64,000 nucleotides of DNA from Escherichia coli. GTDB taxonomy: Bacteria > Pseudomonadota > Gammaproteobacteria > Enterobacterales > Enterobacteriaceae. The notes under the pieces are model-generated. The model was not told the origin of the DNA and did no database searches. It saw only the letters and a list, made by a program, of their open reading frames with translations. The translations under genes were made by a program, and so were the position numbers. Shown here piece after piece: positions 1 through 7,802 of the stretch. The stretch lies in assembly GCF_050920415.1 (NCBI RefSeq), contig NZ_CP169309.1, one strand, 5' to 3'. Numbering within the stretch: the first letter of the stretch is position 1; each line of letters begins with the position of its first letter.

Positions 1-1253
1 GCCAGCTTTATCTGTGGCTGTGCCGCCATCGGATCGGAGCCGAACTTATCGCAGCCGGGCAACATTACCCACAGCCGGATCTGGCGTTGTCTCCCGCCGG
101 TTTCAGCGCCAGGGAATCCCTGTTGCCATCTCCCGCCGGAATGCGGGATGGCTACCGGATCTTACAGGACTGGCTCTGTTTCCCTGATGTGCTGTACTTT
201 TTTAATCTCCGCGACGTAGTGGTGCCGGATGGCGTGCTGACCGGCAGTTTTACTCTGCGACTGAATTTTAACCGCCCGTTGCCGGAGGAACTGCACATCA
301 GCCGCGACTCCCTGCGCCTGTACTGCGCCCCGGCGGTGAATCTGTTTGTCCATGACGCCATTCCCTTCGTACCTGACAGCACCCGTCGCGAATATCCGTT
401 GCAGGTCAGCGAAGACTACCCGGATCATTATGATATTTTCAGCGTCAGGGGTATCCGCAACCGGGACAATGGTCCTGAACGCACCGATGGTCTGCGCAAT
501 ATGATGTTATCCCGTGAGCAGAATGTACTCTCCCTGGATAACGATCAGCCGCGCCCGGAATATCATCGCGAGAAGAAAACCATTTACTGGCGGCACCGGA
601 CAAAAACCGCACTGTTACGTGAAACACCGGATCATTTCATTTCGCTGGTTCATTTTGATGGCAGCACGCCAGATGCCTCCCTGATGAGCAGTGAGCCTGT
701 TCTGGTTTCGCTGGTCTGCACCAGTGGTGACAGGCCCTGTTCGCTGGCACCCGGTGATATCTGTGAGGCAGCGGGGCAAAATACCTCCGTGGCGTCATTT
801 TGTAACGTCACCACACCAACAAGACCTGTGCCGCCCGTACCGGATGGCTCCCTGCACTGGTCGCTGCTCAATATTATGACGCTGAACTGGCTGACCATGA
901 ATGACGTGGAAGCCCTGAGGGATATTCTGCGTACGCTGGATCGGCATGGCATTCACAGGCCGCTGACGGCGCGCCTGTCGCCGGAAAAGCTGAACGGACT
1001 GGAGAAACTGGAAACCCTGCCCACCGATCGCCTTTTACGGGGTGTCGTGATACGCGGCCTGTCGTCCACACTGTACGTCAATCCGCAGCCGTTTTCCTGC
1101 GAAGGTGAAATGCACCTGCTGGGAACGGTGCTGTCGCACTTTTTTGCCCTGTACGCCAGCACAAACTCCTGGCATATGCTGACCATGATTAACACAGAAA
1201 CAAAGGAAGCCTGGCGATGGAAGGAAAGAACCGGTCAGTTCCCCCTGATGTAG
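1..1253 (+). CDS. tssF: Type VI secretion baseplate subunit TssF-like, C-terminal part (5' end outside window)
   Basis: Frame-3 ORF open from the window edge to the stop at 1253; overlaps the start of the downstream TssG-like ORF as is typical for tssF-tssG; family assignment from recall, not searched. Confidence 0.5.
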   Translation, partial: QLYLWLCRHRIGAELIAAGQHYPQPDLALSPAGFSARESLLPSPAGMRDGYRILQDWLCFPDVLYFFNLRDVVVPDGVLTGSFTLRLNFNRPLPEELHISRDSLRLYCAPAVNLFVHDAIPFVPDSTRREYPLQVSEDYPDHYDIFSVRGIRNRDNGPERTDGLRNMMLSREQNVLSLDNDQPRPEYHREKKTIYWRHRTKTALLRETPDHFISLVHFDGSTPDASLMSSEPVLVSLVCTSGDRPCSLAPGDICEAAGQNTSVASFCNVTTPTRPVPPVPDGSLHWSLLNIMTLNWLTMNDVEALRDILRTLDRHGIHRPLTARLSPEKLNGLEKLETLPTDRLLRGVVIRGLSSTLYVNPQPFSCEGEMHLLGTVLSHFFALYASTNSWHMLTMINTETKEAWRWKERTGQFPLM

Positions 1254-2281
1254 AAAACGACACGCCCGATAGCGGAAAACGGAATGAGACACAGGCTCTG
1301 CGTGATGCCTGCTACGGCAATTTTTTTGCTGTCACCGATCTGCTGTACCGCAGTCGTGGCGATGCCATTTCACTGAGAACGGAACCGGAGCAGGAAACGG
1401 TTCATTTTCGTGCCAGTCCTGACATCGCGTTTCCCCTGCGGGATATTGAATCGCTGGAAAAAAATACCGCCGATCAGTACGTAATGACCACCCGATTTAT
1501 GGGGTTATCCGGCAGTTCATCACCATTGCCGGGTTACTATCTGGATGAGATGGCCTGGGTGCAGGCACAGGAAGGCGGCAGCACAACGGCGGATTTCCTG
1601 AACCTCTTCACCCACAGGTATACGCAATTTTTGTACCACATCTGGCGAAAATACCGCTGGTATATCAGTTTTCGTAATGGTGGAACGGATAAGATCTCAC
1701 AGCGGATCTATGCGCTTATCGGGCTGGGCAACCCGCGTGTACGGGAACGGCTGGATATCTGCCACAGCAGGCTGCTGGCTTACGCCGGAATATTATCCGG
1801 CCCCGGACGTTCACCGGCAATGATCTGCGATCTGATCGCACACTGTTTTGATCTGCATGATGTCAGACTGGAAAACTGGCAGTTTCGTCGGGTGGCTATT
1901 CCACCTGATCAGCAAACCCGGCTGGGAAGGTGTGAGCCGGATGCCGAAGGGAAGATGCAGGGTAAATCGGTGCTGGGCGTTAATTTTGTTCTCGGCTCGC
2001 GCGTACCGGATTACAGTGGGAAATTTATGTTGTGTATCAGTAACCTGTCACTGCCGCGATATATGGCCTTTTTGCCCGACGGTGAGGAATACCTGGCGCT
2101 GACCACCTTCGTGGCTTTCCTGTTGCGCGATCAGTTTGCCTGGGAGCTGCGGTTAAGTCTTGTGCCAGAGCAAATTGGTGGAATGCGGCTGGGGGATAAG
2201 AGAAGCTCTCAACTGGGGAGAACCAGTTTTATTGGTAAGCCGCCACGCGAACCCTTTGTGACCATACGGGTCAGGGGATAA
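1217..2281 (+). CDS. tssG: Type VI secretion baseplate subunit TssG-like
   Basis: 354-aa ORF overlapping the upstream ORF by 37 nt; contains an FMGLSGSSSPLPGYY motif resembling the conserved TssG FxGLxGxxGPLP signature. Confidence 0.55.
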   Translation: MEGKNRSVPPDVENDTPDSGKRNETQALRDACYGNFFAVTDLLYRSRGDAISLRTEPEQETVHFRASPDIAFPLRDIESLEKNTADQYVMTTRFMGLSGSSSPLPGYYLDEMAWVQAQEGGSTTADFLNLFTHRYTQFLYHIWRKYRWYISFRNGGTDKISQRIYALIGLGNPRVRERLDICHSRLLAYAGILSGPGRSPAMICDLIAHCFDLHDVRLENWQFRRVAIPPDQQTRLGRCEPDAEGKMQGKSVLGVNFVLGSRVPDYSGKFMLCISNLSLPRYMAFLPDGEEYLALTTFVAFLLRDQFAWELRLSLVPEQIGGMRLGDKRSSQLGRTSFIGKPPREPFVTIRVRG

Positions 2282-2616
2282 AGCCTGTACTGGCAATTGT
2301 TCCGGCCTGCGCTTTGCGATCCGTCCTTCCAGAAAATCACTTGCCACCTTTTATGGGTCATTGTATCGTTGCGCCGCGTCTGCAAAATCAGGCGTCGGGA
2401 TTGGTCTCCCGGTTATAACTCGTTGACGGCATATGACATTTCTGTGTCATTTCTGTGCCGTGCGTTCGGCTGCACTTCTATGGTGGGGCCGGGTGGGGGC
2501 GTTGAAAGACGCGCCGGTTCCCAACGAGACCGGTAAGACCAACTCCGTCCGGTTCCACCACCCGTAAGATTGGTCTCTTCAGTGGTGGAAAATATATTCT
2601 CGTTGGAGGCCACATT

Positions 2617-3078
2617 ATGGCTGTTATTTCTGTTCATAAAGACGATTTACTTACCATCCCCTTCAGTGCCGCTACTGATTTCACCGATCTGGCTGCTCAC
2701 TGCGATCGCTTCGCCCAGACCCTGATCGAATGCCACAATCCTGCGCTAAAAATGGCGCTCTGTGGCAGGCTTAATACCTGCCTTGCACTGTTGCGGCCCA
2801 CGCTGAACGAGCCGATCCCGCCGCATCTGATTGACGGTTTTATTACGAATGATTTTCCCGATGTTTCACCCGGTTTTGAACCTGATGCAGAATCACTCTG
2901 CGATTACTGCCTGGCGCTGACACAGATACTGAATGGTCACTCACTGTTACCTGAAACCGAAACCACGCTGACCGGGCTGCTGTGCGAGCTGGTCTGGTAT
3001 TTTGCTGACAGTCTGAAAGCCCCGCACTGGATACGTACCGCTGACGGCGTACAGGTTATCGACGGGAGGCCAGCATGA
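2617..3078 (+). CDS. Hypothetical protein (153 aa), first gene of a two-gene operon with the Ner-like gene
   Basis: ORF with plausible RBS (GGAGG upstream of ATG); stop overlaps start of next ORF (ATGA); no recognisable motif. Confidence 0.5.
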   Translation: MAVISVHKDDLLTIPFSAATDFTDLAAHCDRFAQTLIECHNPALKMALCGRLNTCLALLRPTLNEPIPPHLIDGFITNDFPDVSPGFEPDAESLCDYCLALTQILNGHSLLPETETTLTGLLCELVWYFADSLKAPHWIRTADGVQVIDGRPA

Positions 3079-3329
3079 TGCAGCCGGACTGGCATCCCGC
3101 TGATATTATCGCGGGACTGAGAAAACGGGGGACATCGCTGGCTAAGGTGTCCCGCAGCGCGGGACTGGCGTCCGCCACGCTGGCAAACGCGTTGACCCGT
3201 TCGTGGCCGCGCGGCGAAAAACTCATTGCGGATGCGCTGGAAACATCACCGGAAATTATCTGGCCCTCCAGATATTTCGATAATCAGGGCAACCGCATTG
3301 TAAGACTTATGCGAGAGCGGCGCTCCTGA
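3075..3329 (+). CDS. Ner/Nlp (SfsB)-family HTH DNA-binding protein
   Basis: 84-aa product with DWHPADIIAGLRKRGTSLA...WPSRY, closely resembling recalled Mu Ner / E. coli Nlp(SfsB) proteins. Confidence 0.8.
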   Translation: MMQPDWHPADIIAGLRKRGTSLAKVSRSAGLASATLANALTRSWPRGEKLIADALETSPEIIWPSRYFDNQGNRIVRLMRERRS

Positions 3330-3366
3330 TGGCAGAAGCGTCAGATACAAGGTTACGGTAAAATAT

Positions 3367-3408
3367 CTCCCGGCTCTCTGCCTGCTTCTGCTGGCAGAGA
3401 GCCGGGAG
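3367..3408. terminator. Perfect 16-bp inverted repeat (ctcccggctctctgcc / ggcagagagccgggag) just after the Ner-like gene; terminator-like hairpin without a clear T-run
   Basis: Read directly from sequence. Confidence 0.5.
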
Positions 3409-4219
3409 AAGACAAGCGAAGCGCGGCAGTTTTTCAGTCACGAAGTAAGCAAACAATCTTTTAAACGCAAAAAACGTTTTTTCTTTCTGCGCCAGAAATA
3501 ACGGTGTAATCTCCCTCCTGCACTATGCCTTCGGGCACCCTTTGGCTTCATGGTCTGCAAGAAGCCCCTGATTTATCAGGACGACCAGCCCTTGCTACCG
3601 GTACGACCTCCGCAATACCGGAACGCGAAAGCGTTTGAGGCGAAGTAATTACACACCGGACAGCCCCATCGTCATCGTTTTACCGCAACGGCCTTCACTG
3701 GCTGCAAGGTTTCTCTTTGCCGGAATTTCTCCGGCCTGCTTATCCCCTGCTGATGACCAGCGCCTTTTACATGACGGGCTGCGGCCTGCATTGCCGTCAG
3801 GCTTTGCTGCCGCGTGACCGTTAATCTACCAGACTGTTAATTTTCGAATACTGCACCAGAAACGCAATGTTTACCCCTTGCACCAGACGAGGCGTCACTT
3901 TGATCGCGTCAGCGAAAAAGCAAAGTGACGCCGCACAACTCACCGCCGCAAGCCGCGCCAGTTCTGGCCTGCGCCCTGTTTCCGCCGTCTGACATGCCCT
4001 TTGGGGCCGTTGTCAGCTCAGAGTAAAGGAGAAAAAGATCGATACCGAGGGGGGCACGACGCCCCGGAGACACCCCTGCTTCGTCAGGCAGTCTGTACTG
4101 CGTACAGCCTGAAACTCCCTAAACCTCAACAAACTGCCACTCCGGCGTGAAGGTATCGTTCTGGCGCAGCCAAAAAGCACACGCCGGAGACTGTTTGTTT
4201 TTGTTGTCAGGGGAGAGTC

Positions 4220-5104
4220 ATGAGCAAATTAAGCAGTGAAATGAAGGCGCTGGCGAAGAAAGCGGGCGGCAGCTTCAAAACGGTGAATGATCGTATTCAT
4301 GCCACGAAGCGGTTCAGCCAGCATTTACGCGAACTGAATATCCAGATCCAGCGGGTGGAGCAGATCAAAGTTCGCCATATCGAATGCTACATTCAGGAGC
4401 GGCTGGAGCAGGATATTGGTTTACGCACGCTGCAAAACGAAATGGCGGCGCTGCGCTCCGTACTGAGACTGGCGGGACGCCGACAGGTGGTGGAGCATCC
4501 GCGCCTGACCAATAAGGCGCTGGGGCTGTCAGGCGCTTCGCGCAACGGCACGCGCCGCGCCATTACGCCGGAACATTATGAAAAAGTGATGGAGAGCGCC
4601 CGTGCACAGGATGCGGGGCTGGCGGCAGCGGTGGAGATTGCGCGGCTGATGGGATTACGCTCGCAGGAGGCGGTACAGAGTTCACAGTCGCTGAAAACGT
4701 GGCTGAAAGCCATTTCCCGCGGCGAAACCCGGCTGAAAGTGGTGTTTGGCACCAAAGGCGGGCGTCCACGTTACACAACGATCCTGGACGCTGGTGCAGT
4801 CAGAAAGGCGGTGGAAAACGCGTTACCGATCGCCAGACAGCGCAATGGCAGGCTGATCGACAGGCCTGACCTCAAAACAGCGCTGGAGAGCTGGCACAAA
4901 CAGGCCATTAAGGCGGGACTGAAGGGGGAATTTTCCCCGCACTCACTGCGTTATGCATGGGCACAGGACGCGATCCGTTATTATCTGGCGCAGGGATTCA
5001 GCGAAAAAGAATCCCTGGCGCTGACGGCAACGGATCTGGGCCACGGCGACGGTCGCGGCCGCTGGGTGAAACAGGTGTACGGCTACCGCTGGAAGGAGGA
5101 ATAA
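4220..5104 (+). CDS. Tyrosine-recombinase-like (phage integrase family) protein, atypical, 294 aa
   Basis: HSLRYAWAQD (HxxR-like box), GLRSQE motif and C-terminal Tyr-containing region; strong RBS (GGGGAGAG) before ATG. Confidence 0.55.
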   Translation: MSKLSSEMKALAKKAGGSFKTVNDRIHATKRFSQHLRELNIQIQRVEQIKVRHIECYIQERLEQDIGLRTLQNEMAALRSVLRLAGRRQVVEHPRLTNKALGLSGASRNGTRRAITPEHYEKVMESARAQDAGLAAAVEIARLMGLRSQEAVQSSQSLKTWLKAISRGETRLKVVFGTKGGRPRYTTILDAGAVRKAVENALPIARQRNGRLIDRPDLKTALESWHKQAIKAGLKGEFSPHSLRYAWAQDAIRYYLAQGFSEKESLALTATDLGHGDGRGRWVKQVYGYRWKEE

Positions 5105-6127
5105 CTGAATTCATGAATGGCGCAAAATAGTACGTTATTGTGTAATGACAGCAATCAGTCTGGCGCAGGGACCGGATGAAATAAAACAACCGGATACCTG
5201 CCGTTATCACTTAACAATATAGTGATAATATTGTTACTGTATGGCGAGTAAATATCAATAACCCAGACCTTCCTGCTTCATCAGTGTGTTTTTCTGGAAT
5301 ATTATAGTGATTACCCCTGTAATCACTCGAAACGTTCCCTATTGATAACAGGTGTTTTAATCGTTTTTACCGATACCACAGGACTGGGAAAATGTTAAAA
5401 TGCCAATTCACCAGAATTTCACATTAATTCTGGCGCAGGATTATATCTGAATAATTCTCTCCATGTTTTCCTGCATCCTGTGACATATATTGTATGCTCA
5501 CAGAATGTCTCATGATTTTATAAAAAATGCTGCGACAGTTTTTGACATCATTACCTGCTACATATAGATTAACAATCTTCGGTGCTTCATGTTGTTTTTT
5601 GCACTTTGTGATCATTATCAGGTGGTTAAAATACAATCTGGTGCAGACTGTCATGGCGCATTTCCAAATAAACTGGTTGCGCCAGAAAGGGAAAGGGTCA
5701 TAAAGGTTAAGGGGCAATAAGGGTAACAGCGCCTGACCGGAAAGGGCGGAAAACTAAAGGGCCAGAAACTGGCGCAGTCCTGAGTATTTTAAATCGCAGG
5801 ATGCTGGTGTAGATATCGGCTAATCCGAAATGGTGCAGGATTTTATCTCTGCGTATCTGGTGCGGTTCTTAAAGGTTGCAGGATATATTTTCATGATCAG
5901 GTTGTGGTGCAGATATTTTTGCGTATTAATTGTTTTTTCCGTGAAATTATCGCTTATTGATAGATTTCCACCTGTTTTGATTTGCATGCAAATCAAAACG
6001 GTCAGTTTCCTATTAATAAGGCGTTAATTAATAGGTTTTTACCCAAAATTATTCACTGGTGAATAATTTCGTACTATTTCCAATTAATAATAACAAACAC
6101 AATGGCAATACCTCTCAATACAAAAAA

Positions 6128-6160
6128 GCAGATCCCCGTCAATCAGGATCTGCTTTTCCA
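6128..6160. terminator. Bidirectional rho-independent terminator (gcagatcc...ggatctgc stem flanked by A-run and T-run)
   Basis: Hairpin with flanking A6 and T4; lies about 90 nt downstream of the integrase stop on the minus strand. Confidence 0.6.
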
Positions 6161-6249
6161 TTTTTACAGAATTACATTATTTCTGACTCAGGCAGGCCTG
6201 TGTCACCAGGTATGGCTGATAACGGCTATTTCTGTTGCCATATGGAGCA

Positions 6250-7461
6250 CTATATTGCCCTTACAGTCACAGATGCCTCACTGATCTTCTGCCCCCACCA
6301 ATTCATCAGTTCCACACGCTGAACCAGGTAAACTGCGCGGTTGTAGGCAACACGTGTTGGATTTTCATCAATATGTGACAAAACTGCTTCCACCGCATCC
6401 GGCATAAATCCGGCTTCATGCAGCGCCGTACTGCCCAGCGCGCGGAAACCATGTGAAACCAACTCGCCGCCGTAACCCATCCGCCATAATGCCTTGTTGA
6501 CCGTCTCACTGTGCATTGGCTGGCTGCGTTTAACCCTGCCGGGAAAGACATACAGCGAATGCTCACTTAATGGCTTAAGCTGCGCCAATACCGACATTGC
6601 CTGTGGTGACAGTGGCACCTGGTGCTCACGCTTCATCTTCATGCGTTCAGCCGGGATAGTCCAGAGCCGTTTATCCATATCAATCTCACACCACATCGTT
6701 CCTGCGGCCTCAGCAGGGCGTACCAGGGTCAGGAGTTGCCATTGCAGCAATAACCGCGTCATGGGGCTTAAACAGGTTGTGTGGACCCGCTGCATGAGTT
6801 CCGGCAGACGCTCCGGGCGAATGGTCGGCATATGCTGCTTTTTCGGCTTCACGAATGCTTCATCAATGGTTGACGCCGGGTTTGCATCCAGCAGGCCTGT
6901 ATTAATGGCGAATTTCATGACCTCATTAATTCGCTGCGTCAGCCGGTGCAACGTCTCCAGCGTGCCACGCGCCCGTACAGGCTCCAGGGCGGAAATAAGC
7001 GTGTGCGCTTTCAGTTCTGTCACTGGCATCTGCCCAATGGCCGGGAACACATCGCGCTCCAGCGATCTCCAGATATCGTCTGCATAATCTTCGGAGATTC
7101 TGGTTTTCTTCACCGCGAACCATCTCGTCGCCACATTAATAAACAGGCTCTCCACCGCCAGCCGCTCCCGTTCGGCTTCCTCCTGCTCCAGTTTCTTTGG
7201 GTCAATACCTTTCACAAGCAGGGAAAGCTGTTCGGCGTGTAATGCGCGTGCGCTGGCAAGCGACATGGCAGGATAATGCCCGAGAGTGATGGTGGTTCGC
7301 GCAGTCGAATTTGGCCGTTTGTAACGAAAACGCCAGATCTTTTTACCGCTGGTTCTGACAAACAGGGTCAGCCCCTGCCCGTCAAACAGTTCGTAATCTT
7401 TATCAGAGGGTTTTGCTTTCTGGACTTCGCAAGCTGATAACGGACGGGTAAGAACAGCCAT
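6250..7461 (-). CDS. P4-family site-specific tyrosine integrase
   Basis: 403-aa product with N-terminal DKDYELFDGQGLTLFVRTSGKKIWRFRYK (P4-int signature) and C-terminal catalytic region (HGFRALGST...AYNRA.Y); located immediately downstream of a tRNA operon. Confidence 0.85.
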   Translation of the reverse strand: MAVLTRPLSACEVQKAKPSDKDYELFDGQGLTLFVRTSGKKIWRFRYKRPNSTARTTITLGHYPAMSLASARALHAEQLSLLVKGIDPKKLEQEEAERERLAVESLFINVATRWFAVKKTRISEDYADDIWRSLERDVFPAIGQMPVTELKAHTLISALEPVRARGTLETLHRLTQRINEVMKFAINTGLLDANPASTIDEAFVKPKKQHMPTIRPERLPELMQRVHTTCLSPMTRLLLQWQLLTLVRPAEAAGTMWCEIDMDKRLWTIPAERMKMKREHQVPLSPQAMSVLAQLKPLSEHSLYVFPGRVKRSQPMHSETVNKALWRMGYGGELVSHGFRALGSTALHEAGFMPDAVEAVLSHIDENPTRVAYNRAVYLVQRVELMNWWGQKISEASVTVRAI

Positions 7462-7646
7462 ACAATCACTCCTTAAATGTCAGTTGAAAATGACAGTGAT
7501 TGAGTGGTGCAATATTTTGTTTTCTTGAAGTTTTTTCAGCAGGAAACTGAATATGGGCCTACAAGATTTCCACCGCCAGAAGCATAGGCCCATTCGTAGG
7601 CCCATTTGCTCTGGATTCCCCGAACCCCGGAGAGAAGCATACAGAC

Positions 7647-7682
7647 GAAAAAAAACCGTATCCTGTTGACAGTGATACGGTT
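7647..7682 (-). terminator. Rho-independent terminator of the val-val-val-lys tRNA operon
   Basis: aaccgtatc...gatacggtt hairpin followed on the minus strand by T8. Confidence 0.7.
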
Positions 7683-7726
7683 TTCTTACTTCCCCGGACT
7701 CTATGAGACATCCCAAGAATGTATGT

Positions 7727-7802
7727 TGGTGGGTCGTGCAGGATTCGAACCTGCGACCAATTGATTAAAAGTCAACTGCTCTACCAACTGAGCTAACGAC
7801 CC
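7727..7802 (-). tRNA. lysV: tRNA-Lys (UUU)
   Basis: 76-nt exact match to recalled E. coli tRNA-Lys sequence (reverse complement), ends CCA. Confidence 0.95.

Follow-up and report, generated by a model that had tools for sequence, protein, structure and literature searches.

An oriented array of 11-bp motifs and a conserved non-coding junction between a relaxase-like gene and the integrase gene of an Escherichia coli island

What is the 1.1 kb of AT-rich DNA that separates two convergent genes for tyrosine-recombinase-fold proteins in an Escherichia coli island? The question concerns the spacer at positions 5105–6249 of a 64,000-nucleotide stretch of contig NZ_CP169309.1 (assembly GCF_050920415.1), hereafter the window. 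A first-pass annotation, made from the letters alone, had noted the lack of a credible open reading frame and a guanine-plus-cytosine (GC) content sharply below that of the flanks. Both observations are borne out: the GC fraction is 0.34–0.44 over 5101–6300 versus 0.49–0.62 on either side, the longest reading frames reach just 58–97 amino acids and are all broken by single-base indels when alleles are compared, and the RefSeq annotation of the identical genome (E. coli MFDS1022581) places nothing inside the spacer. The first-pass annotation also held that this is not random intergenic DNA, which is supported by an excess of repeats, by recurrence of the spacer in 487 of 5426 complete E. coli genomes (~9%), and by conservation of its core above synonymous sites. 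The spacer is real, non-random DNA that joins the transfer module to the integration module of a mobilizable island. The reading we favour, with rather less than even confidence, is that it forms the non-coding junction of these modules in a ~16-kb integrative mobilizable island in tRNA-Lys, and that the 11-bp sites it carries would be bound by a protein of the mobilization module. The mobilization module would comprise an inverted repeat resembling an origin of transfer (oriT), an EFASI RNA, and a relaxase-like gene of the MOB_M/MpsA type; the integration module would comprise a P4-type integrase gene (int) and its attachment (att) site.

The repeat unit of the spacer is the 11-bp TTCTGGYGCAR, shorter than the 16-mer of the first-pass annotation. 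Four copies of that 16-mer had been proposed. Those at 5431 and 5831 are present, with one mismatch and none, respectively, whereas a single inserted nucleotide makes the one placed at 5876 degenerate (TGCAGGAT at 5877–5884), and the one placed at 5901 truly starts at 5905 and has only an 8-nt core in common. Allowing up to three mismatches yields two further matches, each with three mismatches, at 5506 (plus strand) and 5522 (minus strand). Against a shuffled background, the check that the first-pass annotation had proposed, the shorter motif lies far above chance: TGGYGCAG occurs six times on the plus strand of the spacer and never on the minus strand, with 0.026 expected (dinucleotide shuffles, 0 of 2000 reaching six), and GCAGGAT occurs four times with 0.068 expected. 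Across 98 non-coding copies from 10 loci, position -1 is C in 84 and position -2 is T in 60.

In four places (5434–5440, 5797–5803, 5834–5840, and 5878–5889) the motif is extended to GCAGGAT, the reverse complement of ATCCTGC, the core nicked in oriT of the IncP and Ti types and in T-DNA borders; the stretch 5878–5889, GCAGGATATATT, equals 12 nt of the T-DNA border consensus. The extensions are not conserved in other alleles, and the likeness is therefore probably due to chance or local duplication. The copy at 5831 (5829–5840) also has GTGCAGGATT (10 nt) in common with the att core. A link to att is unlikely and the match probably fortuitous, because a closely similar copy (GCAGGATTTT) sits at the same place in an island at tRNA-Asn.

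The 11-bp sites form one oriented set centred on the oriT-like repeat, with minus-strand copies to its left and plus-strand copies to its right. Counted over 19 loci, plus- and minus-strand copies number 1 and 46 in the 800 bp to the left of the repeat, 15 and 5 from the repeat to the start of the relaxase-like gene, and 33 and 1 in the 400 bp past the stop codon of that gene; because the 19 loci are related, these counts describe a pattern rather than independent tests. The flanks of many copies are non-homologous between locus types. CTGGYGCAR occurs 15 times in the 41 kb around the island; 11 of these copies fall inside the 2.4 kb around the relaxase-like gene, and none lies near either att site (the gap between int and the tRNA, and the distal end of the island). 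All 19 loci have the repeat core, GTCACTT...AAGTGAC, in the corresponding position, among them plasmid loci whose relaxase-like gene is 45–50% identical to that of the window. The motif has a narrower range: loci whose relaxase-like gene shares at least 58% identity with that of the window have it, but the two plasmid loci at 45–50% do not, though both keep the repeat and EFASI. In Salmonella genomic island 1 (SGI1), oriT lies upstream of mpsA in a GC-rich region rich in inverted repeats (PMC6414798), and the repeat described here matches it by position.

The first-pass annotation took both flanking genes for recombinases. This stands for the right-hand gene, an integrase, but the left-hand gene encodes a tyrosine-recombinase-fold protein of the MpsA/MOB_M relaxase family. 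MpsA is the atypical relaxase of SGI1, with a tyrosine-recombinase fold (PMC6414798), and PF12835 serves as its relaxase-like signature (PMC10484663). The class is called MOB_M in a 2026 preprint, which describes it as the commonest chromosomal relaxase, with 96% of its genes adjoining an integrase (10.64898/2026.01.13.699239). The relaxase-like protein of the window has the PF12835 and PF12834 domains, and its gene adjoins an intact integrase gene in an island bounded by att repeats. As candidate parts of the catalytic R-H-R-H/W-Y set of a tyrosine recombinase, its translation reads GLRSQE, HSLR, LGH, and VYGY; the profile matches stop at residue 250, with the tyrosine outside the alignment. 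The integrase gene abuts tRNA-Lys of the valU-lysV cluster, and the recurrence of the 19-nt 3' end of this tRNA ~16 kb to the left gives the bounds of the island, whose cargo includes vgrG, PAAR, tssF, and tssG of a type VI secretion system (T6SS); the annotation around it agrees. Every scanned locus has EFASI ahead of the relaxase-like gene, between the oriT-like repeat and the PF12835 gene in the window and in L009–L019 and L037 among the compared loci. We therefore identify the "integrase" of EFASI's name with the MOB_M relaxase-like gene. SGI1 transfer needs sgm-sRNA, a small RNA (sRNA; PMC9299015), of which EFASI may be the counterpart.

In E. coli, matches to the spacer (80–88% identity) are always chromosomal and always at a relaxase/integrase junction beside tRNA-Asn, tRNA-Asp, or tRNA-Lys, usually where a T6SS or Rhs island ends. 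This genome has a single copy, and the plasmid and phage searches described below brought up no known element; the prosaic explanation allowed for by the first-pass annotation, a degraded insertion sequence or other known element, is not supported. The relaxase-like protein has 1645 homologues at E = 1e-20 or better, and we compared loci from Escherichia, Salmonella, Klebsiella, Citrobacter, Serratia, Cedecea, Erwinia, Pseudocitrobacter, one Enterobacter ludwigii assembly, and several plasmids. At most loci outside Escherichia only ~190 bp separate the relaxase-like gene from a convergent int, and they follow a fixed order: the stop codon, TTCTGGTGCAAT 11 nt on, a purine-rich block, CTGGCGCAG, one or two more motif copies, and the int terminator. 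In all, 21 loci retain the conserved block; they are from Escherichia, Salmonella, Klebsiella, Serratia, Cedecea, Erwinia, and Pseudocitrobacter, with an Enterobacter ludwigii locus (L035/L036) besides. Across seven loci, the short junction has an identity of 0.878; in the adjacent gene the values are 0.745 for third codon positions and 0.919 for first and second ones. The junction is more identical than third positions in 21 of 21 pairs. The ancestral core of ~190 bp, made up of motif copies, the block of 100 bp, and the int terminator, is thus under purifying selection across genera. Escherichia has enlarged the junction to 1.1–1.4 kb through AT-rich, palindrome-rich inserts, in the window roughly at 5180–5660 and 5920–6100. 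Four sub-regions of the Escherichia junction reach a conservation of 0.92–0.97 (5425–5480, 5505–5545, 5585–5605, and 5625–5780).

That the spacer holds protein-binding sites, as the first-pass annotation proposed, remains the best reading, although their owner is likely the mobilization module rather than the integrase. The sites lie directly beside the oriT-like repeat, only one relaxase clade has the motif, and the length of the motif fits; taken together, these features are most simply read as predicted binding sites for a DNA-binding protein of that module. The likeliest binder would be the tyrosine-recombinase-fold relaxase, since such enzymes recognise arms of ~11 bp; the Ner-like HTH_35 protein is a candidate alternative. 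As a lead only, motif copies reading GGTGCAGATA agree at 8 of 10 positions with GGTGCGCATAA, the XerC arm of dif. Once bound, the protein might assemble a higher-order complex, both around oriT and where the relaxase and integrase genes converge. There is precedent in that MOB_M relaxases mostly adjoin integrases and have their oriT upstream of the gene (10.64898/2026.01.13.699239; PMC6414798). A bolder version, which seems to us rather unlikely, is that the 11-bp sites are half-site-like sites of the MOB_M relaxase, which would load outward in both directions from the oriT hairpin, and that a nucleoprotein complex of ~2.4 kb, spanning the EFASI gene, the relaxase gene, and the int junction, would couple the initiation of transfer to integrase expression. 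Outward loading would explain the strand switch. In a variant of this version, motif-bearing junction repeats would act as recombination sites for cargo cassettes, as a 23-bp repeat in Cedecea (L012, described below) suggests.

Several observations weigh against binding sites of a mobilization protein. The spacing between copies is irregular (19–270 bp). The string CTGGCGCAG doubles as a favoured codon string for Leu-Ala-Gln and is mildly enriched across E. coli DNA. Copies inside the relaxase-like gene show no significant synonymous constraint (p = 0.18, too few sites), and within Escherichia the motif columns of the junction are not better kept than their neighbours (0.843 versus 0.838, p = 0.50). 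Most of the ~900 bp specific to Escherichia have a conservation of 0.84, slightly above the synonymous 0.79. Finally, the downstream array and the block are missing in L034, L037, and L019, where cargo and not int follows an intact relaxase-like gene, so that the junction module is not required by the relaxase gene alone. The junction is found equally beside integrases just 34–38% identical to the window's, and therefore the module goes with the convergent layout of relaxase and integrase genes, whatever the integrase. This fits an interface role, be it a nucleoprotein complex or transcriptional insulation; a recombination-prone joint in part remains alive as well. The features on which these comparisons rest are collected in Table 1.

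Table 1. Features of the relaxase/integrase junction and its surroundings, in window coordinates
Feature	Position	Strand	Remarks
Upstream motif copies	3487–3494, 3851–3858, 3878–3885	-	left of the oriT-like inverted repeat
oriT-like inverted repeat, GGCGTCACTTTG-N18-CAAAGTGACGCC	3891–3932		motif array changes strand around it
EFASI RNA, Rfam RF02957	4034–4162	+	99.2 bits (gathering score 51.2); plus-strand motif copy 4162–4169 directly after
Relaxase-like gene, 294 aa, tyrosine-recombinase fold, MpsA/MOB_M family	4220–5104	+	Pfam Integrase_1 PF12835, 3.4e-59; Phage_int_SAM_2 PF12834, 4.9e-40
Exact TTCTGGYGCAR cores	5118, 5161, 5431, 5639, 5770, 5831, 5905	+	array 5118–5912, 7 copies
Palindrome AGTGATTACCCCTGTAATCACT	5306–5327		in Escherichia alleles save E. 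albertii L008; single-strand z = -4.95
Conserved sub-element opening with copy 5431 (TAATTCTGGCGCAGGATTATATCTGAATAATTCTCTCC...)	5425–5480	+	column conservation 0.92–0.97; homologue in Salmonella L032, which lacks the purine-rich block
Promoter-like site TTGACA-17-TAGATT (predicted)	5542–5570	+	10 of 12 consensus positions; partly kept between alleles
Purine-rich block, ~100 bp	5677–5777	+	from minus copy 5677–5684 to plus copy 5770–5777; near-invariant TAAGGGTAACAGCGCC.GACC.GAAA.GGC
Motif copy on minus strand of spacer	5677–5684	-	single
Degenerate motif copies	5805, 5858, 5877	+	within array 5118–5912
Compound nested palindrome	5945–6029		holds the 26-bp perfect palindrome 5974–5999; symmetry kept in other alleles via matching changes on both arms
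Inverted repeat CCTATTAAT / ATTAATAGG	6009–6035		
Inverted repeat around AATTATTCAC / GTGAATAATT	6044–6071		other alleles have TTATTTGG / CCAAATAA at the same place
Intrinsic terminator hairpin of int	6124–6157	-	12-bp perfect stem; kept wherever int is convergent
P4-type integrase gene, 403 aa, intact	6250–7461	-	NCBIfam NF007246, 521 bits
tRNA-Lys	7726–7802	-	3' end 7726–7744 (TTGGTGGGTCGTGCAGGAT, 19 nt) is the att core, repeated ~16 kb leftward beyond the window

It is possible, if unlikely, that the junction works at the level of RNA, as the 3' untranslated region of the relaxase mRNA or as a small RNA running from the promoter-like site to the terminator hairpin. UUCUGGYGCAR would then act in RNA, for example by pairing with the complementary YUGCRCCAGAA of the minus-type copies in a transcript of the upstream oriT–EFASI region or by binding an RNA-binding protein. 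The downstream copies do lie on the sense strand, the degenerate motif positions are transitions and so compatible with G-U pairing, and a promoter-like site matching 10 of 12 positions exists. SGI1 requires a self-encoded sRNA beside mpsA (PMC9299015), and EFASI RNA has been detected by reverse-transcription quantitative PCR (PMC12370729). The case for a structured RNA is poor, however: the spacer has no Rfam match, to EFASI, STAXI, or any other family, down to E = 1; the single-sequence folds of the block are unremarkable (z from -0.04 to -1.7); and RNAalifold gave no covariation in either of two alignments, with a covariation term of -0.19 for 19 block sequences and of +2.16, with 0 of 40 compensatory pairs, for 10 junctions of the short type.

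The palindromes of the spacer are secondary to the conserved core. The 26-bp perfect palindrome, the 9-bp inverted repeat at 6009–6035, and the 10-bp inverted repeat at 6047–6068 of the first-pass annotation are all exact and correctly placed. In all, the spacer has seven palindromes with arms of at least 9 nt, versus 0.83 in shuffles, and single-strand folding of the cluster at 5945–6085 gives z = -7.3 (plus) and -5.9 (minus). They are confined to Escherichia and some Salmonella alleles. Alleles differ in sequence yet stay palindromic (GTTTTGATTTGCA|TGCAAATCAAAAC; TTCCGTGATTAACG|CGTTAATCACGGAA; TTCTGTGATTTGC..GCAAATCACAGAA), and the third palindrome site has the allelic forms TTCAC/GTGAA and TTTGG/CCAAA. 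Such matching changes on both arms argue for selection on symmetry, which would suit hairpin formation and the binding of a dimer alike.

It is also conceivable, though we think it unlikely, that the spacer is mostly non-functional filler, silenced by H-NS, at a hot spot of cargo and AT-rich insertion and decay, its repeats and palindromes being scars or local duplications. The junction is certainly a mosaic, in which genomes share differing sub-segments: between the window and L003, identity is 94% in the relaxase-like gene and 80.6% in the spacer, which points to separate histories, and L004–L006 carry an internal duplication of ~215 bp. Other genera, too, have cargo here. In Cedecea and Citrobacter loci (L012; L043/L044) it is a 764-bp insert with an AAA_28 gene, which in L012 (7049–7835), the one locus checked for repeats, is flanked by a 23-bp direct repeat, GTGCAAATAAAAAGCAGA[A/T]CCGC, that spans one copy of the motif together with the left half of the int terminator; in Serratia (L009, 6990–7540) an insert of ~600 bp starts within a motif copy. 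We also considered whether homology breakpoints gather at motif copies. About half fall within 14 nt of a copy, which by a rough estimate is not significant and is expected from the ends of alignments. The Escherichia-wide conservation close to that of synonymous sites, given above, favours filler too, and for much of the Escherichia-specific 900 bp it is quite possibly the right description. It does not extend easily to the ~190-bp core, which is under purifying selection across genera, or to 5425–5480 and 5625–5780 with their high conservation. A strand polarity of the motif that holds over loci with non-homologous flanks is hard to get from scars, and the palindromes have been kept through matching changes on both arms. 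The spacer is AT-rich, as is xenogeneic DNA of the H-NS type; H-NS binding, one option of the first-pass annotation, is plausible, and would fit any insert of 38% GC while failing to account for an oriented motif.

Two simpler origins of the spacer were rejected. In Smith-Waterman and tblastn comparisons the spacer was no more similar to the relaxase-like gene or int than shuffled sequence is, which disfavours degraded flanking genes, and when the spacer is compared with the upstream oriT region as a possible inverted duplicate, the motif alone aligns.

An insulator of convergent transcription is improbable. It would consist of the int terminator backed by a site for Rho loading on the minus strand of the block, which is C-rich and G-poor (36 C versus 18 G, with 23 YC dimers in 101 nt), and would keep the int and relaxase transcripts apart. 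The int terminator is conserved everywhere, and the block and downstream array occur solely where int converges on the relaxase-like gene. A Rho-loading site, however, needs no invariant 16-mer, and the minus-strand copies upstream would be left unexplained.

Quite improbable, in our judgment, is a replication origin, with iterons and AT-rich unwinding DNA, or a mimic of the oriT or centromere of a helper, by way of an ATCCTG^C nick core or parS-like palindromes. Direct repeats do adjoin AT-rich palindromic DNA here, as in the iteron and origin regions of plasmids, YATCCTGY occurs three times, and SGI1 bears palindromic parS mimics (PMC10954446). Iterons, which the first-pass annotation had considered, do not fit: the island has no rep gene, there are neither DnaA boxes nor sites for IHF, and the unit is 11 bp and irregularly spaced, unlike the regular 17–22-bp iterons of plasmid origins. 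Against PLSDB, blastn queries with the entire spacer, the block by itself, and two alleles of the palindromes returned only one chromosome-like Salmonella record or chance matches; because the palindromes have no PLSDB counterpart, a role as parS mimics as in SGI1 is not supported. The block alone (5660–5790) found no match in a phage search, three of the ten matches in a scan of viral contigs for its 16-mer were true homologues, and the GGAT extensions are not kept between alleles. Arm-type sites for the adjacent P4-type integrase, the remaining option of the first-pass annotation, are highly improbable: short direct repeats do adjoin the gene of an integrase with an arm-binding domain, but no copy lies in the int–tRNA gap or at the other end of the island, the sites are 1.8–3.5 kb or more from the att core, the same array accompanies integrases only 34–38% identical that use Asn, Asp, or other tRNAs, and the upstream copies persist without a downstream int.

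The island shares a recurring backbone with many of the compared loci, in the order isrK, a C4-like RNA, orf153, an HTH_35 (Ner-like) gene (3075–3329 in the window), the inverted repeat, EFASI, the relaxase-like gene, int, and the tRNA (window 1–7802; L003–L006, L020, L021, L032, L034, L037, L040, and L043). Its cargo is a T6SS cluster at the asp, asn, and lys tRNAs of E. coli, as well as in Salmonella and Citrobacter, while other loci have genes for defence instead (a ThsB-TIR protein; PIN-TPR-GreABC with HetE-N; NA-iREase2 with RelA_SpoT; a methyltransferase with DUF87). The isrK and C4-antisense-like RNAs (window 2376–2565) lie directly upstream of the orf153/HTH_35 genes in most backbone loci and recall an immunity region of the P1/P4 type. 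The product of orf153 (window 2617–3075), conserved in the backbone, is a predicted helical bundle (mean predicted local distance difference test, pLDDT, of 74.5 in AlphaFold) with no family match. It was considered as an MpsB-like DNA-binding partner and rejected, the model showing a generic bundle of helices that matched no PDB structure at an E below 0.06. At the distal end of the island (L001 6488–6506 and 6644–6659; left of the window) two copies of the att core lie 156 bp apart in a stretch that bears an RtT sRNA annotation, and one terminator-like sequence recurs ahead of both.

How does this locus compare with known systems? The SGI1 mobilization module consists of oriT, sgm-sRNA, mpsA, and mpsB (PMC6414798, PMC9299015). 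As in SGI1, a PF12835 relaxase-type gene sits in a chromosomal island and adjoins an integrase, with a GC-rich inverted-repeat region upstream and an RNA element between that region and the gene, here EFASI at the position of the sgm-sRNA core. Unlike in SGI1, no mpsB-like gene follows the relaxase-like gene, and oriT and relaxase are putative assignments made from sequence; the SGI1 descriptions, for their part, contain no oriented 11-bp array, purine-rich block, or convergent int junction of the kind found here. The relaxase-only MOB_M elements of the preprint likewise have a chromosomal relaxase-like gene that is annotated as an integrase and lies beside a true one, with a cargo of T6SS or defence genes; oriT is predicted there from the intergenic DNA ahead of the gene, and the passages searched gave no mention of a downstream junction (10.64898/2026.01.13.699239). 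The EFASI and STAXI RNA motifs (RF02957, RF01728) belong to the same neighbourhood, and the spacer matches neither. On Pantoea and Klebsiella plasmids with a 45–50% identical relaxase-like gene (L018 5406–5558; L017 4160–4317; L016), STAXI motifs flank that gene; in the Pantoea plasmid STAXI follows it, and the gene for an ArdC-like metallopeptidase that comes after the relaxase-like gene looks like part of a leading region.

Accessory and arm arrays of tyrosine recombinases are familiar from the attP arms of lambda and P4, the direct-repeat sites of TnpI in Tn4430, and the XerC arm of dif. The present array resembles them in its short oriented repeats of ~10–11 bp near a gene for a tyrosine-recombinase-fold protein. 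It differs in extending over ~2.4 kb, far from att and with no paired core site around a central region, and in switching strand at an oriT-like repeat; here binding is a prediction. MOB_M islands, EFASI, and P4-type integrases are already known. For the oriented 11-bp array, the purine-rich block, and the architecture of the junction, we found no description in the literature searched.

In E. coli, Salmonella, Citrobacter, Klebsiella, and other enterobacteria, the backbone described here bears T6SS clusters and genes for defence against phages, and how such islands move is only now being worked out. If the spacer proves to be filler, the result still accounts for the recurrent AT-rich gap in ~9% of complete E. 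coli genomes. We know of no defined binding or nick sites for relaxases of the tyrosine-recombinase type; a clade-specific, strand-oriented 11-bp site centred on an oriT-like repeat is a concrete candidate for the DNA site of such a relaxase.

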